Shown: positions 16,455 to 62,792 of the stretch, one piece after another
How the letters are laid out: each line of letters starts with the position of its first letter
Numbering within the stretch: the stretch's first letter is position 1
From: an uncultured bacterium
GTDB taxonomy: Bacteria; Patescibacteriota; Dojkabacteria; SC72
Length of the DNA: 64,000 nt
Direction of reading: 5' to 3'
Assembly (NCBI GenBank): GCA_903840015.1
Contig: CAIMEL010000004.1
Span: 97,452 to 161,451 of the forward strand
Position numbers and translations under genes: made by a program
Notes under the pieces: model-generated
Database searches by the model: none
Told to the model about the DNA's origin: nothing
What the model saw: the letters and a program-made list of their open reading frames with translations, nothing else

Positions 16455-18458
16455 ATGATTCCATACAAAAAAAAGGATATCAGAGAAATAAAAGGAATAG
16501 GTGATAAACAAGCACTTCTATTTTCTAAATTAAAAATTTTTACTCTGAAGGACTTACTGTACCATATTCCCTTTAGGTATCTTGATACCTCTTCAATATC
16601 AAGTATCACTGAGTTTAAAGAGAGAGGAGAAGGAACCTTCCTAGCAAAGATAATCGATATTAAAACAACATATTTTCGTAAGACAATAACTACAGTAAAG
16701 GTAGAGGACGAAACTGATTCCCTTCGGTTGACATTCTTTAATCAAGGATATCTACAAAAAACCTTGAAGAAAGAAGATCTCTATCTTTTCAATGCGAAGA
16801 TAACTACTAAGGGAAACAGAAAAAATATCTACAATCCGAAGTTTGAAATATTTAAATATGATCCAAGTGAACAGTTGCATATTGGTAAGATGATAGGAGT
16901 ATACCCCGAAACTAAGGGTTTAACATCACGAACAATAAGGTCACGAATTAAGCATTTAGAAAAAGATATCACTGATATCCTTATGGACCCTTTAGCAAAG
17001 AATGACTTAGAGGAACTCGCAATAATTCCACTTCCCGAAGCTATCAAAAAAATACATTTTCCCAACTCAGAAGATGATATTACTTCCGCGAGAGAAAGAC
17101 TTGCTTTTGATGAGATGCTACAAATAGCGATCAGAATTGAGCAGAAACTATCGGAGAGACGCAAACAGAAAGCAAATCCTATACATATTGAAAGTAAATA
17201 TTTAAACAAATACATTAAGGGATTACCCTTTAAGCTTACGGGTGATCAGAACCTTGCCATCGAAGAGATACTTGCAGATCTCTCCAGAGATATCCCTATG
17301 AATAGGCTTCTCAATGGAGATGTAGGTAGTGGTAAAACTGTAGTAGCTTCAATAGCCATATTGAATAGTATAAAAAATGGATATTCTTGCATACTTCTCG
17401 CCCCTACAACTGTCTTAGCAAAACAACATTACGATACATTCAAGAAACTTTTCCAAGGAGAAAGAATTTCAATTGAATTATGTATTTCCTCAGAAAAAAC
17501 CATTAGTCAAGCGAATAACAAACTAATCATAGGCACACATGCGGTTTTAGAAGAAAAAATACTACCTAAAGACCTAAATCTTGTCATTATCGATGAACAA
17601 CATAGATTTGGGGTAGAACAGAGAGAATATTTCAAAAAAGATACCATTACCTCCCCTCATTACCTAACAATGACAGCAACCCCAATACCAAGAACATTAA
17701 CAGAGATATTCTTTGGGAGTATGGATGTATCTGAGATTAAAGAAAAACCAGCCGAGCGTAAAGTTGTTAAAACATTCTTTACTCCTCTAACAAAAAGAAA
17801 CAGCTGTTTAGAATGGACACGAGAAAAAATTTTGGAAAGTCAAAAAAGTGAACAGGCGTTCATCATATACCCCTTGATTGAGGAATCTGAATTAAGTTCC
17901 TCCAAATCCATTTTGAATGAATTTGAGAAATTAAGAGAAATATTCAAAGGATTAAAGATAGAGTATTTACATGGGAGATTAAAACCAGAATTAAAAGATG
18001 ATATTTTGAACAAATTTAGAAAGAAAGAAATTGATGTCTTAGTTTCGACAACAGTCATAGAGGTAGGTATAGATATTCCAGATGCTACCATTATGATAAT
18101 TGAGGATGCCGAGAGGTTTGGATTGGCACAACTCCACCAGTTGAGAGGCAGAGTAGGGAGAAGTAACAAAGAATCGTTCTGCTTTGTCATAGCAGGAGAA
18201 TCTGTAGAGAAGGATTCAGAGGCTGAGAAAAGATTAATTTACTTCTCAAAAAACAGTAGTGGCTTTGATGTTGCAGAGTATGATCTAAAACACCGAGGGC
18301 CAGGGGAGGTATATGGTACTGCACAATCAGGTATTCCAAACTTCAAAGTCGCAAATCTTTTTGATACAAAACTCCTGAAGAAAACGAGGCTGTTTGCAAA
18401 AAAGCTTCTTAAGGAAGATAATGATCCGAAAGATATATTAGAGAATCTCTTTAGATGA
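16455..18458 (+). CDS. recG: ATP-dependent DNA helicase RecG.
   Basis: Contains the helicase motifs DVGSGKTVVA, DEQHRFGV and QLRGRVGRS, and has an N-terminal wedge/OB region. Length is 667 aa. Confidence 0.85.
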   Translation: MIPYKKKDIREIKGIGDKQALLFSKLKIFTLKDLLYHIPFRYLDTSSISSITEFKERGEGTFLAKIIDIKTTYFRKTITTVKVEDETDSLRLTFFNQGYLQKTLKKEDLYLFNAKITTKGNRKNIYNPKFEIFKYDPSEQLHIGKMIGVYPETKGLTSRTIRSRIKHLEKDITDILMDPLAKNDLEELAIIPLPEAIKKIHFPNSEDDITSARERLAFDEMLQIAIRIEQKLSERRKQKANPIHIESKYLNKYIKGLPFKLTGDQNLAIEEILADLSRDIPMNRLLNGDVGSGKTVVASIAILNSIKNGYSCILLAPTTVLAKQHYDTFKKLFQGERISIELCISSEKTISQANNKLIIGTHAVLEEKILPKDLNLVIIDEQHRFGVEQREYFKKDTITSPHYLTMTATPIPRTLTEIFFGSMDVSEIKEKPAERKVVKTFFTPLTKRNSCLEWTREKILESQKSEQAFIIYPLIEESELSSSKSILNEFEKLREIFKGLKIEYLHGRLKPELKDDILNKFRKKEIDVLVSTTVIEVGIDIPDATIMIIEDAERFGLAQLHQLRGRVGRSNKESFCFVIAGESVEKDSEAEKRLIYFSKNSSGFDVAEYDLKHRGPGEVYGTAQSGIPNFKVANLFDTKLLKKTRLFAKKLLKEDNDPKDILENLFR

Positions 18459-18907
18459 AGATACATATAGTGCTAGATAATATAAGATCAGTTTTTAATG
18501 TAGGCAGTATATTTAGATCTGCCGATGGTGCAGGTAGTGTAGAGAAAATATACCTGTGTGGAATAACATCTCCCATTGATAATCCCAAATTAGAAAAAAC
18601 AGCATTGGGAGCGACAGAGATGGTTGATTCCGAACATTACGATACAACAGAGGAGGCAATAGAAGAGCTACGCTCAAGAAATATACCAATATACTCTGTG
18701 GAATTAACTGAGAAAGCTCAGAATTTCCAATCAATTAAATATCCCAATGAACTAGCTATTGTATTTGGTCATGAGAAGAAAGGTGTAGAAGAAGATATAC
18801 TAAAGGAGAGTGATAATCATATTATGATTCCAATGAGAGGGAAGAAAGAATCTCTTAATGTCGCAAATTGTGCAAGTATAATTCTTTACGAATTAACAAG
18901 AGAGTAG
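18455..18907 (+). CDS. SpoU/TrmH-family RNA 2'-O-methyltransferase (TrmL-like, minimal).
   Basis: SPOUT knot motifs NVGSIFRSADGAG, AIVFGHEKKGVEEDI and NVANCASIILYEL are present in a 150-aa protein. Confidence 0.75.
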   Translation: MKIHIVLDNIRSVFNVGSIFRSADGAGSVEKIYLCGITSPIDNPKLEKTALGATEMVDSEHYDTTEEAIEELRSRNIPIYSVELTEKAQNFQSIKYPNELAIVFGHEKKGVEEDILKESDNHIMIPMRGKKESLNVANCASIILYELTRE

Positions 18908-18927
18908 AATCTGCTAGAATATATCAT

Positions 18928-21450
18928 ATGGAGATTTCAAGAAAGAGTGTAGTGATTGCATCTTCGATAATAGCTTTGGCAGGGTTAGGATTTGTAGCAT
19001 ATTCACTTCTAAATGAACAATCAGAAGAGGGTGGAGCTTGGTTCAATAGTAGCTGGATGTACAGAAGAAGTTTAACTGTTGAAAACACTGGCACGACATT
19101 AACGAATGAGGATGTGCTGGTAGAATTTGATACAGCGACTCTTGTAACGAACAGTAAATTACAAAGCGATTGTGATGATTTAAGATTTGTTGATAGTGAT
19201 GACAGCACTCTCTTGAAATATTGGATAGAAGGAGAGTGTAACACAACAAATACCCAAATATGGGTACAGATACCAAGCTTACCGAATGGTGGCAAAACAA
19301 TATATGTTTACTACGGTAACGATACAGCAACAAGTGCAGAGGAAACCTGGAGCGGAGATTTCATTTTACTCTCCGACACATCTTGTCCTACTGGATGGAG
19401 CCAAGATACAGCCTTTAACGACAGATTCATGTATGGAGCAACAACTGCAGGCACAGATTATACGCCGACACTTAGTACACATAACCACGGAGGTTCAAAA
19501 AGTATAACAACTGGGGGCCCTTCAACTACGGTTCCACCAAGAGATCCTGGAGCAGGAGGTTCTTCCGGTTCATCTTCAACACATACCCATACAGCAAGCA
19601 TACCCATAGCAAACGCAACTGTGTTACCACCATATATGGATATGTACGTCTGCACAAATTCAAGATTAAACCTTGAAACAAATCTTGTAACACTATTTGA
19701 TTCTGAGACATTGCCAACTGGATGGACACAGTTTTCAGGATTGACTAACAGATTTCCGAGAGGTGGCACATACAGTGGGACAGGAGCTGGTACAAGTACA
19801 CATACTCATACAGTATCAAATGCCACCAGCTCAGGAGCCAGTGCGACACTTTCATTGAACACTGGTTTTGTAAACTACAATGTCCAAAATATTACACAAG
19901 CTCACACTCATACCATATACCCAACTTGTGGGTCTGCAAATCATATACCACCATATAGACAGATGGTTTACGCTGAAGTCACATCATCAACCTACGATTA
20001 TGGAAACCTCGTCTCAATGTTTTCCGACGATCCACCATTAGGCTGGACCTATTTCTCAAGCTTAGAAGATAAATTCGGATATGGGGTGAGCACTTTTGGT
20101 ACAAGAGATGGAGGGACAAGCACACATACACATAGCATAACCACAACAAGTAGTACCCCATCCTCGAATAGAGATATAGATGGAGGATCTTCAGCAGTAG
20201 CTCGAGGGAATCACACTCATACAGGAAGCGGTACAACATCTGCAGAATCCAATATACCTTCATATCGCACTGTGATTTTTTACCAAAGAAAATCATCTGT
20301 AAGTGTAACAGACACAAATACACCTCCTGTGGAAGAAATGTACAATCAAACACCAAACGCTCCTTCCTCTTTGCTAACAGAAGGCTCTACAAACCCGACA
20401 GGTATAACAGATTTAACTCCAGAGTTCAGTGCTGTATACACTGATCCAGATACTGGAGATACTGCTACACATTACCAAGTGCAAGTAAACACATCATCTG
20501 ATTTTACTGGAACGTCTATGTGGGATTCAACAAAAACACTCTTTGGAACCGCATTGGATATAAATGATCGTTCGCCAGACATATCATACAATGGTTCAAC
20601 ATTACAATGGAGTAGTACATACTACTGGAGAATCAAATTTTGGGACAACAATGATTTCAACAATGAAGGACCTTGGTCTACTGGAGGTCAATTTACTACC
20701 AATTACAAGCCGAATCAACCATCCACACCATATACAAGTGGAAGTGCAAACCCAGTAAAAACAACACTCACTCCAACGTTCTCAGCAATTTTCTCAGATA
20801 CAGACGCACCGGATACAGGGGATTCATACCAGATACAGGTAAACACATCCTCTGATTTCACTGGGACGTCTATGTGGGATTCCACAAAAACAGCTTTCTC
20901 TCCAGTAATAAATAACAATACAAGATCATCTAACATTACATACAATGGTTCTTCCTTAGTCGCTGGTACACAATACTTTTGGAGAATTATGTTTTGGGAT
21001 AATAATGATTTGGAAAGTATATGGTCTACGACGTCCAATTTCATTACAGCTGGTCCACCACAAAACCCTTCAGCACTACTAACTGAGGGTAGGACAAATC
21101 CTGTTACAATTGTCGCAGGCTATCCCAATTTTTCAGCTTTCTACACAGACCCCAATGGTGATTCTGCAACATATTACGAAATCGAAATCAATTCCAGCGC
21201 TACATTTACAGGAACTGTAATGTGGGATACAGGTAAAACAGCCACATCCATAACTTCAAATACAAGATCTCCAGATTACACATATGATGGAGTCCCATTA
21301 ACTGATACAAACAATGTTTACTACTGGAGAATCCGATTCTGGGATAGTGATGATACCGTCAGTGATTGGTCCTCAACAGCTCAATTTACTGACAAATTTA
21401 CTCACCTCATAATCGATGGTCTTCAGTTAAAAGGTGTTAAAATCAATTAA
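18928..21450 (+). CDS. Large membrane-anchored modular surface protein. It contains a DUF2341-like module, 3 tandem phage tail-collar-like repeats with HTHT motifs, and 3 tandem Ig/FN3-like repeats.
   Basis: The ORF track begins at 18868 and overlaps the preceding gene by 40 nt. The Met at 18928 (MEISRKS) directly precedes the signal-anchor helix VVIASSIIALAGLGFVAYSLL and is the likelier start. Domains were assigned by eye and are detailed in the findings. Confidence 0.6.
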   Translation: MEISRKSVVIASSIIALAGLGFVAYSLLNEQSEEGGAWFNSSWMYRRSLTVENTGTTLTNEDVLVEFDTATLVTNSKLQSDCDDLRFVDSDDSTLLKYWIEGECNTTNTQIWVQIPSLPNGGKTIYVYYGNDTATSAEETWSGDFILLSDTSCPTGWSQDTAFNDRFMYGATTAGTDYTPTLSTHNHGGSKSITTGGPSTTVPPRDPGAGGSSGSSSTHTHTASIPIANATVLPPYMDMYVCTNSRLNLETNLVTLFDSETLPTGWTQFSGLTNRFPRGGTYSGTGAGTSTHTHTVSNATSSGASATLSLNTGFVNYNVQNITQAHTHTIYPTCGSANHIPPYRQMVYAEVTSSTYDYGNLVSMFSDDPPLGWTYFSSLEDKFGYGVSTFGTRDGGTSTHTHSITTTSSTPSSNRDIDGGSSAVARGNHTHTGSGTTSAESNIPSYRTVIFYQRKSSVSVTDTNTPPVEEMYNQTPNAPSSLLTEGSTNPTGITDLTPEFSAVYTDPDTGDTATHYQVQVNTSSDFTGTSMWDSTKTLFGTALDINDRSPDISYNGSTLQWSSTYYWRIKFWDNNDFNNEGPWSTGGQFTTNYKPNQPSTPYTSGSANPVKTTLTPTFSAIFSDTDAPDTGDSYQIQVNTSSDFTGTSMWDSTKTAFSPVINNNTRSSNITYNGSSLVAGTQYFWRIMFWDNNDLESIWSTTSNFITAGPPQNPSALLTEGRTNPVTIVAGYPNFSAFYTDPNGDSATYYEIEINSSATFTGTVMWDTGKTATSITSNTRSPDYTYDGVPLTDTNNVYYWRIRFWDSDDTVSDWSSTAQFTDKFTHLIIDGLQLKGVKIN

Positions 21451-21461
21451 ATACGATATAA

Positions 21462-22211
21462 TTGCCTTCTATGAGTTTAAAACATGATTCTTTCAAAAAA
21501 TTAAGAAAAGAAAAAAGTAAATGGAAAGTAGATACACCTGAAGAATTTGAAATTCGGGAAGATGCTTTCTTAAAGGAAAGGTTGCAAAGTAAAGAACCTG
21601 ATATCAAAGCAACCGTAAGAATAACTGCTGGCAAAGTTAAAAATTTCATCATAGAAATACCTCGTGCTACAAGACCAATGACAGACAGGATGAAGGTAAG
21701 AGTTTTTGATATTCTAAAAGAGGATATTGTTAAAAAAGATATTCTAGATCTCTATGCAGGAGCAGGCTCTTTTGGCTTGGAAGCACTATCACGAGGAGCA
21801 AGCACTGTAACATTCGTAGATGCCTCTAAGAATGCGGACTTTGTTATCAAGAAGAACGTTGCTCATACAGGATTTTTAACACAGAGTGAGATAGTGAAAG
21901 AAAAAGTAGAAGATTTTCTTTTCAAAGCAACAAATCAAGAAGAGAGAAAAACTTTCGACATCATATTCCTCGATCCACCTTACAAGCTATTCAATACGAA
22001 GAAAACTTTCAAAATGGAATCCATTATCAACCTATCAACTAAACTTCTTTCTGGAGTAGCAAATCCAAAGAAAAAAGGATTCAAGGGAGCAATCATTATA
22101 AAGCATCCGAAACGATATGATTTAGAGAAATTAAAGCTTGAGAATATTCAAAGAATTGAAGAGATATCCTTCGGATTAAATTCCATCTCTTTCTTCATTG
22201 TTAAAACCTAA
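21462..22211 (+). CDS. rsmD: 16S rRNA (guanine966-N2)-methyltransferase RsmD-like.
   Basis: Contains RITAGKVKNFIIEIP, LDLYAGAGSFGLEALSRGA and FDIIFLDPPY (a DPPY catalytic motif). The N-terminal ~50 aa is probably over-extended by the ORF caller. Confidence 0.75.
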   Translation: MPSMSLKHDSFKKLRKEKSKWKVDTPEEFEIREDAFLKERLQSKEPDIKATVRITAGKVKNFIIEIPRATRPMTDRMKVRVFDILKEDIVKKDILDLYAGAGSFGLEALSRGASTVTFVDASKNADFVIKKNVAHTGFLTQSEIVKEKVEDFLFKATNQEERKTFDIIFLDPPYKLFNTKKTFKMESIINLSTKLLSGVANPKKKGFKGAIIIKHPKRYDLEKLKLENIQRIEEISFGLNSISFFIVKT

Positions 22212-22369: not shown

Positions 22370-24142
22370 ATGGATTCTGAAAATATATCTAAATTAGAAA
22401 AGATGAGACATTCTGCCTCTCATGTGTTAGCACATGCCATTTTGAAACTATACCCTGACACAAAATTGGGTATCGGCCCTGCTATAGACAATGGTTTTTA
22501 CTACGATTTTGATTTTACAGAACCAATAGAGGAGGAAGACCTAAAAAAGATTGAGAAAGAGATGAGAAAGATAATTAAAGAAGGGCTGACTATCGAGCAA
22601 ATCTTTATGTCACGAAAAAACGCCATAGATTACTATCAAAAAACAGATCAAACTTACAAATTAGAGTTACTTGAGGAGATTCCAGGAGAGGAACTCAGTT
22701 TCTTTGTAACTGGAGATAATGAGTTTGCAGACCTATGTAGAGGCCCTCATATCAGTAACACTAAAGAGATAGGGGCTATAAAATTGACGAAAACCGCAGG
22801 GGCATATTGGAGAGGAGATGAGACGAAGAAGATGTTAACCAGAATATATGGAACTGCGTTTGAAACAAAAGAGGAGCTTGAAAAATACCTTAAGGATCAG
22901 GAGGAGCTTGAGAAGAGAAATCATCGTAAACTTGGTAAACAGCTAGAGCTCTTTACCATTATTCCAGAAGTAGGACAAGGTTTGCCAATATGGCTACCTA
23001 GAGGATATGTCATGAGAAGAATACTAGAGGAATATATGTTAGAACTCGAAAGAGAAGCAGGATATGAACATATACTAACTCCACATATTAATAAGGAAAT
23101 ACTATTTCAAACTTCTGGACATTTACAATTCTACAAAGATTCTATGTATGCACCAATAACAGTTGAGGATGAAACCTACTACTTGAAACCTATGAACTGT
23201 CCAGCAGCAATGATGGTATACAAAATGACTCCAAAGAGTTACAGAGAGCTACCATACAAGCTTGGAGAGCTTGGAACTGTGTATAGATATGAGAAGAGTG
23301 GTGAGTTACATGGATTACAGAGAGTTAGAGGTTTTACACAGAATGATGCCCATCTGTTCTGTACTCCAGAGCAACTGGAAAGTGTTTTGAATGAAACTCT
23401 TGATTTGTTAGATATTTTCTACAAAGATGTGGGGTTCACCAATTACAAGTTTAGATTATCTCTATCAAGTAAAACAGAAAAGCAGGAGAAATATGCTGGA
23501 GATCCTGAGAAATGGGAATTTGCAGAGAATGCATTGAGAAAAGTATTAATAGATAGGGGATTAGAATTTGAAGAAATGCCTGGAGATGCAGCATTCTATG
23601 GACCTAAAATAGATATACAGGCAGTAAATGTTTTTGGGAAGGAAGACTCAGTATCAACTATGCAATTAGACTTCAATCTTCCTGAGAAATTCCAAATAAC
23701 ATATATAGATAGCGAGGGGAAAGAGAAACAGCCTTATGTAATTCACAGAGCATTAATAGGTTCCTTCGAGAGATTCTTCTCATTTCTGATAGAACATCAT
23801 GGTGGAGATTTCCCACTTTGGTTTACACCTGAGCAGGTATGTATTATACCTATTTCAGAGAAACAGAATGAATATGCATCAGGAGTATTCAAAAAACTTA
23901 AAGATGCAAAATTAAGGGTCAAGTTAGATATTAGGAACAAGAGTATGCAGGCACGAATTCGTGATGCAGAGAAAATGAAAATCCCTTACATCATAGTAGT
24001 GGGAGACAAAGAGATAGATACAGAAACAATATCTGTCAGGGCTAGAAGTAACAAGGAAGAGGGTCTTATGAAAGTACAGGAATTCATAGACAATCTCAGA
24101 GAAGAGATTAGAACGAAAGAAACTTTCACTAATAATATATAA
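22370..24142 (+). CDS. thrS: Threonyl-tRNA synthetase. The editing N2 domain begins MRHSASHVLAHA, and no TGS N1 domain is present.
   Basis: The motif RHSASHVLAHAILKLYPDTKLGIGPAIDNGFYYDF is the ThrRS second-additional domain. Class II motifs and a C-terminal anticodon-binding domain are present. Confidence 0.85.
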   Translation: MDSENISKLEKMRHSASHVLAHAILKLYPDTKLGIGPAIDNGFYYDFDFTEPIEEEDLKKIEKEMRKIIKEGLTIEQIFMSRKNAIDYYQKTDQTYKLELLEEIPGEELSFFVTGDNEFADLCRGPHISNTKEIGAIKLTKTAGAYWRGDETKKMLTRIYGTAFETKEELEKYLKDQEELEKRNHRKLGKQLELFTIIPEVGQGLPIWLPRGYVMRRILEEYMLELEREAGYEHILTPHINKEILFQTSGHLQFYKDSMYAPITVEDETYYLKPMNCPAAMMVYKMTPKSYRELPYKLGELGTVYRYEKSGELHGLQRVRGFTQNDAHLFCTPEQLESVLNETLDLLDIFYKDVGFTNYKFRLSLSSKTEKQEKYAGDPEKWEFAENALRKVLIDRGLEFEEMPGDAAFYGPKIDIQAVNVFGKEDSVSTMQLDFNLPEKFQITYIDSEGKEKQPYVIHRALIGSFERFFSFLIEHHGGDFPLWFTPEQVCIIPISEKQNEYASGVFKKLKDAKLRVKLDIRNKSMQARIRDAEKMKIPYIIVVGDKEIDTETISVRARSNKEEGLMKVQEFIDNLREEIRTKETFTNNI

Positions 24143-56474: not shown

Positions 56475-57203
56475 TTACTCTTTTAACTCTTCAGCCTTTT
56501 TAGAGAATATCCCAATTACATCAGCGTACTGAGTATACTCATTGAATGCTGCGTAGTAATCAACCTTGTAGGCTCTCTCAGGGACATAATATCCTATGAC
56601 TCCCAAATCAACACGCCATAGCTCTCCCGTTTTCTTAAAAGAAATATTATCTGCAGAGATTATATAAGGGGATGCAGAATACAAGCTATCCAAGAAACTT
56701 AAGATATCTTGCAAAGTACCAGTATATGATAAAGGTCCACTCACTCCTAGGTAAGATTTTTTCTCATTATTTTTGTCCTTGTTCGTGAACGAAACAGTAA
56801 CATCCCCAGCAGACAGAGATTTTGATGTAAGATTCTTCTCATTTGCCAAAGTATCTATGTAATATACAAACATAGACACCCTCAAAGTCTTTGGTATAAC
56901 ACTCTTGGCATTTAGCAAATCCACTTGCATAGTTGCATCATCTATTCCTTTTAATTTCGCCTCTAATTTAACCAAAGTATCTTCCTTTTGCTTTAGAGAT
57001 TCATATTCCTGTTGAAAAGCTATTGTAGCCTTTATCATTGGTACAAACACAAAGATACTCAACATTAGTAATATAATGGTTGCTGCAGCAGGTATTAAAA
57101 TATCCTCCACCTTTACTTTGGAGTCTTTTATTTTCTCGCTTATTGCTTCCAACTCCTTTTTTGTTTTATTACCCTCTGGTTGTTTGTTCGATAATGTTTG
57201 CAT
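56475..57203 (-). CDS. pilO: Type IV pilus assembly protein PilO-like.
   Basis: Its architecture is a short cytoplasmic N-terminus, one TM, a coiled coil and an alpha/beta domain. It is the last gene of the pilM-pilN-pilO operon, 1 nt after pilN. Confidence 0.55.
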   Translation of the reverse strand: MQTLSNKQPEGNKTKKELEAISEKIKDSKVKVEDILIPAAATIILLMLSIFVFVPMIKATIAFQQEYESLKQKEDTLVKLEAKLKGIDDATMQVDLLNAKSVIPKTLRVSMFVYYIDTLANEKNLTSKSLSAGDVTVSFTNKDKNNEKKSYLGVSGPLSYTGTLQDILSFLDSLYSASPYIISADNISFKKTGELWRVDLGVIGYYVPERAYKVDYYAAFNEYTQYADVIGIFSKKAEELKE

Positions 57204-57204
57204 A

Positions 57205-57921
57205 TTACTTACTATCTACTTTTAGGAAATTATCTAAAACAAAAGATCCGTAGAAAGAGAAAGTTACATCTTGAGAACTCTTCCCAACAGCCCTTAGAGA
57301 TATCTTTTCTATTCTCGAATCATTACCCAAAAGATACCATAGTTTAGCAACATCCTCTAAACTCTGTGCTTTCCCAGTGAATTCAATCCCATTCAATCCT
57401 GTAAAGGCAAAGGCCGTTAATGTACAATTGGTTTTACTAGTAATACCATTAATATATTCAAGTACTGCCTTTGCAGAATATCTACCTTTTTCAATATCAT
57501 TATACAAATATATTCTGTCTAAGATCTCATTGTTTCCAATAATCTTTTGAGATAACCCCTCAACCTGAGCTTCACTTTTTATTAATTTCTCCTTCTCAGC
57601 ATTCAGCTGAAATTTAAAAACTATGTTCAAGCCGACAATGAGAATAGAGATAACAAAAAGAATAATGAGGCTTACTATTGCACTCATATTAATCTTTTTC
57701 TTTTTTTCTTCTGTCTGAACCTCTTCCTTACTAAGGATTGGGATGAGATTAATACCACCATCAGATGCAATCACAGTATCTGGCACCTCACTTTTGGGTT
57801 TCAATGGGTGAGCAAGAGGAGTGGTTGCATTCTTTCCAAGGGTATCAGTGGCTGCAACAGGTACTGGTTTTGCCTGAGGTTCTATCTGCTTATTGTTATC
57901 AACAGGTGGAGTATTATTCAT
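57205..57921 (-). CDS. pilN: Type IV pilus assembly protein PilN-like, with a ~50-aa Pro-rich N-terminal extension.
   Basis: The conserved PilM-binding motif INLIP (consensus INLLP) is followed by a single TM and a periplasmic-type domain. It overlaps pilM by 8 nt. Confidence 0.65.
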   Translation of the reverse strand: MNNTPPVDNNKQIEPQAKPVPVAATDTLGKNATTPLAHPLKPKSEVPDTVIASDGGINLIPILSKEEVQTEEKKKKINMSAIVSLIILFVISILIVGLNIVFKFQLNAEKEKLIKSEAQVEGLSQKIIGNNEILDRIYLYNDIEKGRYSAKAVLEYINGITSKTNCTLTAFAFTGLNGIEFTGKAQSLEDVAKLWYLLGNDSRIEKISLRAVGKSSQDVTFSFYGSFVLDNFLKVDSK

Positions 57922-58945
57922 CTTTCATTGCTAAACCAATAGCAACCGAATAGGAGGGTCCGCTCTTGGCTATTATGTCCTTAAATTTATTGTCAACTGC
58001 AATATTGTTCCATGGCATAGACATCGTAGCGTTTACACCAAGACTCTTAGATACATACTCCTTCAATCCAGGTAAAAGGGCTCCATCGCCATTAAGCATA
58101 TAGTCAGTAGGAGCAACAGAGAGAGTTCGGTTTTTGTAAAATTCAACACCTCTTCTTACCTCAACCATAATGGATTCTACAATTGGACTCAAAACTGAAT
58201 ATATTTTGCCCTCCAAAACATTCTCAACAAGTCCATAATTTCGTTTAAATTCTTCAGCTCTCTGATACTCAAAATTGAATTTATTAATAACAGCCTGAGT
58301 TAATGAGTCCGAACCGATAGCTATACTCTGAGAGAAAACTAAATATCCATCGGAGAGAATACTCATATCAGTACTATTTGCACCAAAATCTAACATTATT
58401 AAGTCCTTCTTGCCACTTGATTTATACATAGCTCTTCCCATTGCAACAGATTCCGTCTCTATAGCTATTAAATCTAGGGAAGACAAAACAGCAATATTGA
58501 TATATATATCGATAACTTTTCTTGGGGCGGCAACAACCAAAACTCTCGGAGCATTCTTCTCTGTATTAAAACCTATTGGTACATAACTAAGTTGAACTTC
58601 ATTCAATGGCATAGGTATGTACTGTTTAGCTTCAAAGTACACCGCATCCTTTAATTCTTCTGCTTTCACACCAGGGAATTCTAAAAACCTAGTAAAGACT
58701 GAGAATTCAGGTAAAGCCATAACGACATTCTTATTCTTAATACGAGAAGAGTCATAGAGCTTTTTTAATACATCCGCAAGTTTACGTTGATCACTCTTAT
58801 CTTCACTATTAATAACTCCCTTTGGAGTCAGTTGAGATCCAAGATTAACTAACAATGGATTTGCAGAGGATATACGACTAAGTTCAACAGCTTTAACTGA
58901 ATGCGTTCCGAAGTCTATACCAACATGATCGGGCAGTTTGGCCAT
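57914..58945 (-). CDS. pilM: Type IV pilus assembly ATPase-like actin-fold protein PilM.
   Basis: The N-terminus VGIDFGTHSVKAVEL is an actin/FtsA-like phosphate-1 motif. It is ~343 aa and lies immediately upstream of pilN. Confidence 0.75.
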   Translation of the reverse strand: MAKLPDHVGIDFGTHSVKAVELSRISSANPLLVNLGSQLTPKGVINSEDKSDQRKLADVLKKLYDSSRIKNKNVVMALPEFSVFTRFLEFPGVKAEELKDAVYFEAKQYIPMPLNEVQLSYVPIGFNTEKNAPRVLVVAAPRKVIDIYINIAVLSSLDLIAIETESVAMGRAMYKSSGKKDLIMLDFGANSTDMSILSDGYLVFSQSIAIGSDSLTQAVINKFNFEYQRAEEFKRNYGLVENVLEGKIYSVLSPIVESIMVEVRRGVEFYKNRTLSVAPTDYMLNGDGALLPGLKEYVSKSLGVNATMSMPWNNIAVDNKFKDIIAKSGPSYSVAIGLAMKDE

Positions 58946-58990: not shown

Positions 58991-61270
58991 CTAGAAAGGT
59001 TTCAAACCAATCTCGCTTTTGAAAACTAGTTTCTCACCACCAAAAAGAGCATTTATCAATTTACCATATTTGACATGATTTACAACATTTACAACAGGGT
59101 AGGGGTGCCTATCTTGTAAATGTAGTTCCCTAGCGATGTTTATACTAACACCAGTATCAGGATCTTTTCCAAAAGCTATTAAACCTCCTTCAACTATTAA
59201 AGCATCTTTCCTTGCATTCAGTGGTTTGTTCTCATTCAAAATATTTATGACACCACCACTCATCAGATAGGCTTCAATAACATCAAATCCTATTGAGGTA
59301 GAAGTTGTATGATCATCACCTTTTCCTATATTTATATTTCCATTAACAATGAAAACACATGCATCGGATTTTTTTACTCCCTTAAAATCAGGTTCAATAT
59401 TTAAATCTCCCTCAATCAAAAATACTCCTCTTCCATCACAGAGGAAACCTTTACTGACAGCTAGATTCCCCTCTACATTAGCAACATAAACCTTGTCCGT
59501 ACAGTATCCTTCCAAGCAGTAATCGGAAAGTTTACCATTTAACGATTTAATAGCAGGATCTATCTGTGTCATCACATCAGGAGAAACATTCTTTAATTTC
59601 TTAAAATAGGTATAGTAAATATCTTTAGTATAAGGATTTGTAATATTTGTAACTCTATACGAAGCATTTCTGTTAAGTAATATTCGAAGATTAAGAACTG
59701 AATCAACAGTACCGGTAAGAAGTTCAGTGGAAAGATCTGCTGTACTCTCTGTGAACCCATACTCAAAGAGATCACTCAGGAGCCATACATTACTTGATAG
59801 TTCACGAACATCAACACTAGTCCCTCCTTGTGAGAAGAAGAATCCACCTCGACTTTGAATCCATTCGCCTAATTTGAATCTTAATTGTTTAGTCGTTGAA
59901 TTACATGCCAAATCAAATGTTGTAACGAAGAAATCAATATACCCACCTCGATTGAGACCCAATCCCATTTTTTCTTCTCGATTTGCAAGATTTAATACCT
60001 TCCACAAAATATTATCTCCAGTAAGTTTTCCTACCAAATCAGATTCTTTCTGGAAGTTCAACAGAAAGGTACTACCATCAGGATAAGGGTATGTTATTTC
60101 AGCATTCTTTATCATATCCTGTTTCAATCGGAAAGCATTTCCGACAGAGTTGGTAATCCTAGTTTCATTATCCTGAGAATTCCAGAACAAACTAACCTCA
60201 GTTGGTCCATTGATTGTCATAGACAAAGGATCAACAGTAGGGGGGGTTAAATCAACTGTCCATTGATCACCTTTTCTCCAATCCTTGTAGAATCTAATCT
60301 GATTAGCTTTGTAAGGAAGCTTATTCAGCTTATCTGGATTTGTATAATTGTCATACGGAGTGAACCCAAACGTATCATTGGCCATAGCATATACATCATA
60401 TTTACCTTGATAGACCTGCTCATAGATATCAACTTTAGAGTCCTTGTTTAAGAACTCAATATTGAAATTGCTAACAACCTTATTAGTTTGCGAAAGAGTT
60501 AAGTTGGTAATTCTTACCATAGCTTTTCCAGTAGGTCCTTCAATCGTAAAATCAGAACCAACCTCAGCTACTTTTACCCAGTACATTTTGTCACCCAAAT
60601 ATGGAACGTAGATCTCTTTCCAGGAACCACTTACCTTTCGAACCATAAAACCAAAACTATAGTTATTTCTTGTCTTACCTGAAGATCTGCTTGCTCCTAG
60701 CCACTGTATCTCTGTAGGAGTTGTACCTGCCTTACTCATCCAGAAATACACAGCTTCAAGGGTCTTAACATCTACAGAGCTTGAATATTTAGCCTCGACA
60801 GCTACAGGGTTGTTAATACTCAACCCTGACGATATATTGCTCGTACAATCATAAATATTTGTATTGGACGGTTTGACGGGCTTGAATTCTACCTCGGCAC
60901 CTGTCCAGTTTGGATATTCATCACAATCTTCTTTCGCAGGATCACAGTAAGGAGGTATTTCATAACACATTCCAGTTTTTGTTTCGCCACATCCCTTATC
61001 ACACGATACACTCTTTGCTGGATATCCAGTATTGGTACTTGTAGTGCCTTCGGGACAAGCAGGTAGGGTACAGCTGTGAGGCGTACATGTGTCATCATCA
61101 TCTCCATCATCACAACCTGGAGAATTACAGGGAATAAAAGTCCTAGGAGGGGTACTCCAGTATGCTTTACATGCAGCATCACAAGGAGTACAACCATCAG
61201 CAGAAACTTTGTCAACAAAGAAAAGACTTAGAGTGAAAAAGATTGAGATTAAAATAAAAAGTTTTTTCAT
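58991..61270 (-). CDS. Large secreted protein of unknown function, with an N-terminal Cys-rich acidic region and a C-terminal beta-helix-like repeat region.
   Basis: The signal peptide MKKLFILISIFFTLSLFFVDKVSA is followed by 20+ Cys in the first ~110 residues, including DDGDDDDTC. The C-terminal ~170 aa has repetitive V/I-x-G-x-L/I patterns. It is 45 nt upstream of pilM on the same strand. Confidence 0.55.
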   Translation of the reverse strand: MKKLFILISIFFTLSLFFVDKVSADGCTPCDAACKAYWSTPPRTFIPCNSPGCDDGDDDDTCTPHSCTLPACPEGTTSTNTGYPAKSVSCDKGCGETKTGMCYEIPPYCDPAKEDCDEYPNWTGAEVEFKPVKPSNTNIYDCTSNISSGLSINNPVAVEAKYSSSVDVKTLEAVYFWMSKAGTTPTEIQWLGASRSSGKTRNNYSFGFMVRKVSGSWKEIYVPYLGDKMYWVKVAEVGSDFTIEGPTGKAMVRITNLTLSQTNKVVSNFNIEFLNKDSKVDIYEQVYQGKYDVYAMANDTFGFTPYDNYTNPDKLNKLPYKANQIRFYKDWRKGDQWTVDLTPPTVDPLSMTINGPTEVSLFWNSQDNETRITNSVGNAFRLKQDMIKNAEITYPYPDGSTFLLNFQKESDLVGKLTGDNILWKVLNLANREEKMGLGLNRGGYIDFFVTTFDLACNSTTKQLRFKLGEWIQSRGGFFFSQGGTSVDVRELSSNVWLLSDLFEYGFTESTADLSTELLTGTVDSVLNLRILLNRNASYRVTNITNPYTKDIYYTYFKKLKNVSPDVMTQIDPAIKSLNGKLSDYCLEGYCTDKVYVANVEGNLAVSKGFLCDGRGVFLIEGDLNIEPDFKGVKKSDACVFIVNGNINIGKGDDHTTSTSIGFDVIEAYLMSGGVINILNENKPLNARKDALIVEGGLIAFGKDPDTGVSINIARELHLQDRHPYPVVNVVNHVKYGKLINALFGGEKLVFKSEIGLKPF

Positions 61271-61271
61271 A

Positions 61272-62792
61272 TTATCTCAAGAGTAAATTAATCAATTCAA
61301 CTTGATCTAAAACAAAGTATTCCAATTCAAAACCTTCTGGAACATATGAATACAAGACAGAATATTTCCTGTCTAAACTTCTCTCCAAGAGACTCTGTAG
61401 AGACTCATCGAATTCAATCATATTGTTCATATCTAAGAACCTAATCGCAGCGATATAGTTAATATTTTCTAAGAGCGCAAGATCTCTCGACATATTGTTT
61501 TCACCCACGTAATTAAGGATCCTATCTATATCACCCTTGTAGTATGAATCACCAGTTTCTCGATATAACTCTTCTGCAGCTAAACCTATGTAGTAAATTT
61601 CCTGAGATTGTTTTTTAGAAATTCCAAAGGTATATATTAAATTCTGATATCCCTTTTTTAACAGTGCCTTATCTTCCTTAGAAAGAGATCCATCTTCGGC
61701 AGAGAGCCATTCGATCATCCCAAGTAACAAATCGGTATTTAGTCTTACATAGTTCTCACCACCAACAAAACCCGATTGTTGCCTACTTGTAGTAAGTACT
61801 ATCTCCTTCTCTAATATCGTAGAAAGACTTACCAATTTATTGTTATCGCTAAGCCAGTTTGACTCATACGATTTATACAAAGTCTCATCACACCAAGTCA
61901 GAGCATCTTCTTTCCAGTTAGTACTAAAAACATCTATACAATCTTTGCCACAACTCTCTATATTCCGAACAAAACTGTGCACATCATCACAGCTCGCCCC
62001 TCCATATTTCTTTATCTCAAACTGCCTCTTTGAATCCAATTCCGAACTTAAGAAATTCGCCAAATCTATTCTTTCCTCCTGCCCATATATATCAAAGGTA
62101 TTACTTAATGTTACTAATATTTTAAAGAAATATCTTCCAACAAGATATTTTGGAACTACAACCTCATTATCAATATCGACAAAAACATTCCTGTTCGTCG
62201 CATCAGTATAGAACAGTAACGCCAAAGGATGTATATCTTCTTCCGTATTTAATTTACGAATCCAACTAACAAGATTCTTTACCAAATCTCTTCTATTCTC
62301 TGCTAGACTTAATTCCTGATTCGTAATATTCCAACTAACAATGGAAGCTACAGGATCTACATAATTAAATGAGAAAAATTTCCTAATTCCCAAGAGTAGA
62401 GAAGAGTAGAGATCCTCTTTTTCGAAAACTATACCAAGTTTGGTTGCCTTGCCTTTCTGGACACCGATTATTGAAGGATGATCGCTTAGGATTGTTGGCA
62501 ATTCTATATTCCTTGCAGTTCCTTCAATATCAACATAATTGATCTTCACAAATTCTTCACCAATAACAATGTCTGTTAAAAGAAACTCCTGTGTTAAAGT
62601 TATACGAGAAGCACCTTCACAATTAACTTTAAAACCACTTTCTTGAAGACTTTTAACATTTTTGTAAACTGAACAATCCTTTTGATATGCCAGACCTAAA
62701 TAGAACATTCCTGAGATAGTGAGTAGTACAACAGCAGCGACAAAAAGTAGAATATAGGTAATTATTTTTCTCTTAGGCTTTGGATCATACAT
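61272..62792 (-). CDS. Membrane-anchored (N-terminal TM) protein of unknown function, 506 aa.
   Basis: An N-terminal TM (IITYILLFVAAVVLLTISGMFYLGLAY) is followed by a large soluble domain with no recognised motif. The stop is 1 nt from the start of the 759-aa gene. Confidence 0.5.
   Translation of the reverse strand: MYDPKPKRKIITYILLFVAAVVLLTISGMFYLGLAYQKDCSVYKNVKSLQESGFKVNCEGASRITLTQEFLLTDIVIGEEFVKINYVDIEGTARNIELPTILSDHPSIIGVQKGKATKLGIVFEKEDLYSSLLLGIRKFFSFNYVDPVASIVSWNITNQELSLAENRRDLVKNLVSWIRKLNTEEDIHPLALLFYTDATNRNVFVDIDNEVVVPKYLVGRYFFKILVTLSNTFDIYGQEERIDLANFLSSELDSKRQFEIKKYGGASCDDVHSFVRNIESCGKDCIDVFSTNWKEDALTWCDETLYKSYESNWLSDNNKLVSLSTILEKEIVLTTSRQQSGFVGGENYVRLNTDLLLGMIEWLSAEDGSLSKEDKALLKKGYQNLIYTFGISKKQSQEIYYIGLAAEELYRETGDSYYKGDIDRILNYVGENNMSRDLALLENINYIAAIRFLDMNNMIEFDESLQSLLERSLDRKYSVLYSYVPEGFELEYFVLDQVELINLLLR

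Follow-up and report, generated by a model that had tools for sequence, protein, structure and literature searches.

A fused triplet of HxH repeats with remote homology to phage fibre tips is an uncatalogued module of many ultrasmall bacterial and archaeal surface proteins

A 64,000-nucleotide stretch of contig CAIMEL010000004.1 (GenBank assembly GCA_903840015.1), hereafter called the window, carries on its forward strand a gene at positions 18928-21450 encoding an 840-residue protein that combines an N-terminal helix, a DUF2341 domain, three repeats of about 100 residues with paired HxH motifs, and three Ig-like repeats. Analysis of the HxH triplet revealed an uncatalogued module that is widely distributed among the surface proteins of ultrasmall prokaryotes, both bacteria and archaea, and of which no description was found in the open-access full-text literature. 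The explanation that we favour, with somewhat better than even confidence, is that the three repeats form a single-chain pseudo-trimer of a metal-stabilised fibre tip of the phage type, carrying variable loops, placed on the cell surface and probably involved in binding. An earlier note on this stretch had described the same gene as encoding a DUF2341-like head followed by three phage tail-collar-like and three fibronectin type III (FN3)-like or Ig-like repeats.

The three middle repeats (positions 19351-20292) share the motifs P(T/L)GW, (D/N)(R/K)F..G, two HxH and (P/S)Y. Their pairwise alignment, with 28-32% identity over 93-99 residues (BLASTP E 4e-9 to 4e-6), confirmed the repeats and the motif set that the earlier note had recognised; the HTHT-type motifs that it had reported are also present, except that it had missed the first motif of repeat 1, which is HNH. 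The Collar model (PF07484; gathering score 24 bits) did not match the protein at E<=10 or ten of its relatives at E<=1, the result that the earlier note had said would speak against its tail-collar claim. The Gp10_C model (PF21939) gave no Pfam match to the protein, neither the whole protein nor the middle region matched any PHROG, 50,697 phage records yielded no tblastn match to the middle region, and a rhamnosidase Ig domain was the sole match in a PDB sequence search with the protein. The Collar core, CDG...(S/T)R..Y..LF..IG..YG.G.G.TTF.LPD, is absent from all three repeats, and hhalign leaves a 32-residue gap at its place. This gap corresponds to the core on which the Pfam model is built, which explains the failure of that model. 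Both flanks of the core were aligned with high confidence, the G.I..F strand and P.GW before it and (L/D)RGRFP.G after it, and are visible in the protein as FILLS..PTGW..NDRFMYG and equivalents.

To compare whole profiles, a model of the repeat built from 45 repeat units (profile A1) was aligned with Collar-domain proteins from phage genomes (six diverse sequences) and with an alignment of 31 MdpB-like proteins of the Collar+Gp10_C type. Profile-profile comparison with the 31 MdpB-like proteins gave a probability of 92.4% (P 5e-7) and a score of 42.8, while 100 column shuffles reached at most 17.5 (probability <=1.9%) and the reversed profile 17.8. With the six diverse phage proteins, the probability was 85% and the score 37.2, against a maximum of 16.5 in 60 shuffles; profile-sequence scoring of the repeat model against six Collar proteins with HMMER was not significant. 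Under relaxed settings, columns 1-99 of the repeat aligned end to end with positions 26-176 of the 185-position MdpB-like protomer, in the order G.I..F, P.GW, 32-residue gap, RG.F.RG, GG..TH and (L)(Q/P)PY....(I)K, which indicates that one repeat corresponds to one whole fibre-tip protomer minus the Collar core. As judged from these profile alignments, the repeats are remotely homologous to the Collar+Gp10_C fibre-tip superfamily (gp10, gp11, gp12 and MdpB-like proteins) without being members of its Pfam families, so that the tail-collar proposal holds for the order of motifs and fails for family membership. Profile A1 also gave a marginal match (E 0.043) to the short tail fibre gp16 of phage SU10 (7z47_I), located on the segment with His194/196 and His230/232, for which the authors of the structure propose Fe2+ binding as in T4 gp37 (PMC9509320). 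In T4 gp12, three chains form a 'knitted' trimer and their equivalent HxH motifs hold a Zn on its threefold axis (PMC3004832).

A word-indexed search with residues 140-456 of the protein returned 24 clusters only. Scored against 1.84 billion representatives, profile A1 matched 3826 protein clusters at E<=1e-3 and 494 at E<=1e-30, with lengths up to 6510 residues. A scan of one genome per species with close homologues as the query yielded 203 relatives, nearly all of them from Candidatus Dojkabacteria (WS6) or other Patescibacteria, and Dojkabacteria genomes often hold several paralogues of the 840-residue protein. Members of the HxH family were found in Patescibacteria, in WOR-3 (with tails of the type IX secretion system, T9SS), in one Dehalococcoidales assembly and in one Woesearchaeota. 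The latter, a 5808-residue 'DUF2341 domain-containing protein' of Candidatus Woesearchaeota (DPANN; NCBI MBN2422330.1), contains two HxH triplets, which makes the module common to ultrasmall bacteria and archaea.

Counting of the repeats in the 145 best representatives revealed a rule of three. Raw counts were 3 in 110 proteins, 6 in 21, 4 in 11, 7 in two and 8 in one, and all counts of 4, 7 and 8 were due to a repeat split by an insertion of 140-400 residues or to truncation at a contig end. Once split repeats were merged and truncation was allowed for, all 145 representatives had three or six repeats, a rule that also held in the first 24 matches and in the open reading frames (ORFs) of the Dojkabacteria loci. 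Moreover, 483 of 506 repeats (95%) found their best match at the same triplet position of another protein. This position-specific matching implies that the triplication predates the family, whose evolutionary unit is the triplet.

The four histidines of each repeat are the most conserved residues, with frequencies of 0.90-0.99 in each of the three positions; besides them, only W, GG and P.Y come close to invariance. The second HxH motif is complete in all three repeats of 147 out of 160 triplets. Variability among homologues is highest in the loops that separate the two HxH motifs; these loops are modelled with low confidence and are the place where additional domains are inserted. All 13 insertions of 140-400 residues lie in repeat 2, between its two HxH motifs, and the insert corresponds to Pfam Gly_rich_2 (PF21722) in both proteins checked, P0091 (residues 342-577) and P0032.

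An AlphaFold2 model of residues 136-462, obtained from 25 sequences, reached a mean predicted local distance difference test (pLDDT) of 80 and a predicted template modelling score (pTM) of 0.77. The predicted fold is compact and all-beta; its strand pattern recurs from repeat to repeat, the loops between HxH motifs are the only parts of low confidence, and the three repeats probably pack into one rigid body. In the full-length model (pLDDT 84, pTM 0.51), the helix of residues 5-30, the DUF2341 beta domain and three confident Ig domains are recognised, and the last 11 residues are unstructured; such a pTM would follow from Ig domains strung like beads beside a triplet that forms one body. Foldseek found no match to the model in the PDB. 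In BFVD, the only significant matches were Pas28 (E 3e-15, TMq 0.56) and Pas29 (E 1e-14, TMq 0.61) of the Actinoplanes phage phiAsp2, two relatives reached by fold search and not by sequence search. Since a single repeat could account for a TMq of about 0.32 at most, at least two repeats share their mutual arrangement in these independent models. Pas28 and Pas29 (NC_005885, 19272-25990) are large proteins encoded in the tail module, right after a tape-measure-like gene, and for Pas29 the annotation mentions HXH motifs and a possible role in receptor recognition. Together, the repeat number of three or six, the positional orthology and the single body predicted by AlphaFold point to three repeats that constitute one pseudo-trimeric domain.

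The triplet is preceded by DUF2341 (PF10102), identified at residues 81-139 with 62.5 bits for a gathering cut-off of 23.4 (E 5.2e-17), in agreement with the head domain assigned by the earlier note. Its nucleotide ranges were also right, whereas its 'aa ~60-150' is displaced by about 20 residues, consistent with a count that began at the upstream TTG. DUF2341 stands immediately upstream in the chain of 83 of 173 triplets, half of the triplets occur without it, and the pair of DUF2341 and triplet is duplicated as one unit in P0032. Public annotation of the relatives reads 'DUF2341 domain-containing protein' or 'hypothetical'. DUF2341 has been reported in giant Patescibacteria proteins, where its tie to type IV pili-like systems is by annotation only (PMC11809585, PMC4858521).

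A surface location of the 840-residue protein is plausible, given its N-terminal helix, its conserved cysteine pairs and the T9SS sorting tails borne by some distant WOR-3 relatives. The N-terminus K(K/R)(S/T) followed by hydrophobic residues is kept in the paralogues. Cys82 and Cys104 (window positions 19171 and 19237), within the DUF2341 domain, and Cys153 and Cys242 (19384 and 19651), flanking repeat 1, are invariant across 43 homologues; both pairs are probably disulfides, which would fit with an extracytoplasmic location. A class III signal of the type IV pilin kind was not recognised on inspection of the N-terminus, MEISRK-SVVIASS having neither G/A at -1 nor E at +5, and the protein contains no LPXTG motif and no Por_Secre_tail or T9SS C-terminal domain, by motif or Pfam match.

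On the C-terminal side, the three repeats at positions 20353-21393 belong to Ig_Rha78A_N (PF25788), matched in three stretches with 139.5 bits for a cut-off of 27.4 (E 5.7e-41). The Ig-like half of the earlier proposal is thereby supported, while the Pfam fn3 model (PF00041) is not listed for the protein even at E<=10. The repeats are 45-58% identical to each other (E 1e-27 to 2e-42), each ending in Y(Y/F)WRI.FWD...WS...F, as the earlier note had observed with its YYWRI-type endings, and these domains are highly conserved among homologues. The match to the Ig-like part in PDB entry 6i60_A is to a rhamnosidase N-terminal domain. Two models of GH78 alpha-L-rhamnosidases, NF041572 and NF041573, scored 91 and 64 bits for cut-offs of 1800 and 1720, with the N-terminal Ig part only.

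The protein ends in a conserved tail, always situated directly after the last Ig_Rha78A_N domain and shared by about 25 Dojkabacteria paralogues (loci L009-L077) in the form hydrophobic-x-hydrophobic-(E/N)G-x-L-x-G-(I/L)K(I/L)(N/D)-COOH. It is unstructured in the AlphaFold model (pLDDT <50 for residues 830-840). Among the 1008 ORFs of the Dojkabacteria loci, and also in the window, this tail is confined to the family of the 840-residue protein; it was consequently rejected, on present data, as a general sorting signal. A second class of paralogues, of about 1300-2650 residues, has a basic tail of the form ...EGG..V......K..I.AKKI.V(K/R)K(K/I) (L021, L030, L047, L053, L060, L062, L064, L073 and L078).

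Coordinates of the 840-residue protein, its domains and the neighbouring genes (window positions)
Feature	Residues	Position	Strand	Basis or remark
Whole gene, multidomain surface protein	840 in total	18928..21450 (stop codon 21448-21450)	+	ORF list, public gene calls, homologue starts
N-terminal signal-anchor	1-30	18928..19017	+	MEISRK, then hydrophobic helix; AlphaFold helix 5-30; candidate anchor
DUF2341-containing beta domain	~38-141	19039..19350	+	PF10102; AlphaFold strands pLDDT ~90
HxH repeat 1	142-245	19351..19662	+	PTGW 154, HNH 185-187, HTH 219-221, PPY 234-236; invariant Cys153, Cys242
HxH repeat 2	251-352	19678..19983	+	PTGW 263, HTH 292-294, HTH 326-328, PPY 341-343
HxH repeat 3	358-455	19999..20292	+	PLGW 370, HTH 400-402, HTH 429-431, PSY 444-446
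Ig-like repeat 1 (Ig_Rha78A_N)	476-592	20353..20703	+	PF25788 best stretch 480-591; PDB 6i60_A E 5.9e-6
Ig-like repeat 2 (Ig_Rha78A_N)	594-709	20707..21054	+	Pfam three stretches; NCBIfam stretch 616-707; 58% identical to repeat 1
Ig-like repeat 3 (Ig_Rha78A_N)	711-822	21058..21393	+	45-51% identical to repeats 1 and 2; pLDDT >90
Conserved C-terminal tail KFTHLIIDGLQLKGVKIN	823-840	21394..21447	+	Consensus EGLxLEGIKIN-COOH, 43 homologues
recG		16455-18458		Upstream neighbour
SpoU-type methylase		18455-18907		Upstream neighbour
rsmD-like methylase		21462-22211		Downstream neighbour
thrS		22370-24142		Downstream neighbour

The gene lies in an ORF of the forward strand extending over 18868-21450, in which the ATG at 18928 gives 840 residues. 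This ATG is the start called for the identical gene on public contigs and agrees with the N-termini of 42 homologues. The order of the surrounding genes is repeated at the closest homologue in another assembly, and the remainder of the window consists of housekeeping genes (murein synthesis, tRNA synthetases, mutS, clpB and others). No phage genes and no further paralogues of the protein were found in the 64-kb window. Its G+C content is about 35%, the gene (0.38-0.39) being slightly richer than its flanks (0.33-0.35). Given the housekeeping neighbours and relatives that are nearly all from Dojkabacteria or other Patescibacteria, the window is most likely part of a Dojkabacteria chromosome rather than of a mobile element. 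In a syntenic relative (L002; GCA_030153585.1, JASEKO010005300.1), the homologue of the protein and most of the genes around it (recG, thrS, pheS, pheT) are split into several short ORFs, which look like assembly frameshift errors rather than pseudogenes.

No linkage of the gene to a pilus locus was found in the window: the adjacent genes are housekeeping genes, and about 35 kb separate the gene from pilM, the closest pilus gene. This type IV pilus assembly gene (57914-58945, minus strand; PF11104, E 8e-51) is followed downstream by two membrane-protein ORFs, 57205-57921 and 56475-57203 (minus strand), that could be pilN and pilO, the whole cluster spanning 56475-58945. Just upstream of pilM are two large ORFs with no Pfam match, 58991-61270 (759 residues) and 61272-62792 (506 residues), both on the minus strand. 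The N-terminus of the former resembles a signal peptide and leads into a Cys-rich, Asp-rich stretch, that of the latter contains a membrane helix, and both proteins may be pilus-associated.

Based on these observations, we propose that the protein would be extracytoplasmic and membrane-tethered in a Dojkabacteria-like (Patescibacteria) bacterium. Its core, residues 142-455, would be made of three diverged copies, each equivalent to one protomer of a homotrimeric, intertwined tip of the gp12 type from which the Collar core has been deleted, and the copies would fold together about a pseudo-threefold axis. The HxH motifs, two per copy, would meet in two layers of six histidines, and these putative metal sites (Fe or Zn) would lock the fold, as in T4 gp12, T4 gp37 and SU10 gp16. 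The long hypervariable loops between HxH motifs would constitute the exposed face, binding a ligand or displaying inserted domains. DUF2341 would be a frequent N-terminal partner, the three Ig-like domains would serve as spacers and the C-terminal tail as a family-specific terminal element. Fusion of the protomers would remove the need for trimerisation and for fibre chaperones. The module may bind and attach to a partner cell or polymer, attachment to another cell being plausible for a Patescibacteria organism.

Several points weigh against this proposal. No Pfam, NCBIfam or PHROG model matches the middle repeats, which go unrecognised by curated models, and the first HxH motif is complete in all three repeats of only 121 of 160 triplets, about a quarter being incomplete. 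The pseudo-threefold axis and the geometry of the histidines are conjectural, and AlphaFold and BFVD have one method in common, together with its biases. If the N-terminal anchor is uncleaved, the triplet would sit next to the membrane with the Ig domains pointing outward, and would not be a distal tip; the C-terminal tail might instead dock that end of the protein. Lastly, the ligand and the partner are hypothetical.

The triplet could also be a rigid, metal-stapled spacer devoid of any binding role, with recognition carried out by the DUF2341 or Ig_Rha78A_N domains. The HxH layers are indeed structural staples in phage fibres (PMC9509320, PMC3004832), DUF2341 directly precedes nearly half of the triplets and was duplicated together with one of them, and Ig_Rha78A_N is highly conserved and known from the N-terminus of carbohydrate-active GH78 rhamnosidases. 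We nevertheless judge this unlikely, as the hypervariability of the loops between HxH motifs and their tolerance of entire inserted domains are typical of a face that displays or binds, as half of the triplets are without DUF2341, and as the homologous phage domain is a receptor-binding tip. The version given by the earlier note, an array of three tail-collar receptor-binding domains, each folding and binding alone, was not borne out. Every repeat does contain all the motifs and can be aligned with an entire fibre-tip protomer, but such an array is hard to reconcile with a repeat number that is always a multiple of three, with 95% position-specific orthology, with the pTM of the triplet and its global superposition on the phiAsp2 models, or with homologous phage protomers that fold only as intertwined trimers (PMC3004832), and we consider it highly improbable.

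Little credence can likewise be given to a metal-dependent enzyme or a metal-capturing protein in which the twelve conserved histidines would be catalytic or storage sites. HxH motifs are also found in metalloenzymes, and the histidines are the most conserved residues of the module. They are, however, accompanied by no conserved acidic or nucleophilic residue, near-invariance being otherwise limited to W, GG and P.Y; no enzyme family was matched in Pfam, NCBIfam or the PDB, and the closest relatives are non-enzymatic fibre tips. The least credible reading is that of a tail-fibre gene belonging to a prophage or another mobile element, suggested by the homologous triplet in the tail module of phiAsp2. 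It was rejected on genomic context and synteny: the gene is located between recG, the SpoU methylase, rsmD and thrS, in the same order in another genome, with a GC content barely above that of its flanks, an N-terminal membrane helix, many paralogues per Dojkabacteria genome, no phage genes found in the window and an empty tblastn search against phage records.

The single-chain pseudo-trimer, which we retain, leads to testable predictions: the module should be a pseudo-trimeric monomer that holds two metal ions and binds through the loops between HxH motifs. Patescibacteria and DPANN archaea are organisms attached to other cells, by means of recognition that are for the most part poorly understood. 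Their large surface proteins are mostly labelled 'DUF2341' or 'hypothetical', and the HxH triplet provides a recognisable module within them that is tied to structurally understood phage receptor-binding tips. A wider idea, possible but held with considerable doubt, is that in these episymbionts a chaperone-independent, single-chain fibre tip, comprising more than 3800 clusters, with two metal sites in its interior and a face of hypervariable loops that tolerate insertions, might act as a general and rapidly diversifying host-recognition module that phages such as phiAsp2 exchange with cells. If this were true, cell-to-cell attachment in Patescibacteria and DPANN would follow the molecular logic of phage adsorption. 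The triplet would also be a natural case of a homotrimeric intertwined fibre fold turned into a single chain, relevant to the design of phage-like binders without trimerisation chaperones, and thousands of proteins would gain an annotation from a curated model of the family.

The three C-terminal repeats match the N-terminal Ig domain of GH78 alpha-L-rhamnosidases (PF25788; PDB 6I60), from which the protein differs by the absence of the rhamnosidase catalytic domain. With the DUF2341 (MJ1470) proteins of Patescibacteria and DPANN archaea it shares the N-terminal DUF2341 domain and the public annotation. It differs from them in that its gene is outside any pilus locus, and the HxH triplet is not described in PMC11809585 or PMC4858521.

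The best profile-profile match of the HxH repeat is to the MdpB-like 'microcystin-dependent protein' and actinophage minor tail proteins (Collar + Gp10_C, about 180 residues), whose protomer is covered by one repeat except for its N-terminal 25 residues or so. In contrast to the protein described here, these are single-copy proteins, presumed homotrimers, that retain the Collar core, with about 16% identity over the aligned columns. Pas28 and Pas29 of phiAsp2 share with the protein from the window the single-chain module, with three repeats each as detected by hidden Markov model. They differ by an identity of 18-22%, by extra HxH motifs per repeat and by being virion proteins without membrane anchor, DUF2341 or Ig_Rha78A_N. 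What is left of the Collar core in their repeat 3 is a short 'LCDG..G.PDM' remnant, an intermediate between the classic Collar proteins and the form found in the window.

The receptor-binding domain of the T4 gp12 type (1OCY, 1H6W; Collar PF07484 + S_tail_recep_bd) and the related C-terminal domains of gp10 and gp11 show the same succession of G.I..F strand, P.GW, RG.F.RG, GG, HxH and final P.(Y/N)....IK strand, with conserved HxH histidines. That superfamily consists of homotrimers of intertwined chains, whereas in the protein from the window three protomer equivalents are covalently fused, so that the module would work in the manner of a trimer without being a homotrimer. Among the known metal-binding fibre tips with HxH motifs, such as the T4 gp37 needle (2XGF), SU10 gp16 (7Z47), JUB59 C24 (6OV6) and the Pa223 fibre (9NXK), the likeness to gp37 and SU10 gp16, as to gp12, lies in the conservation of HxH in every protomer equivalent.

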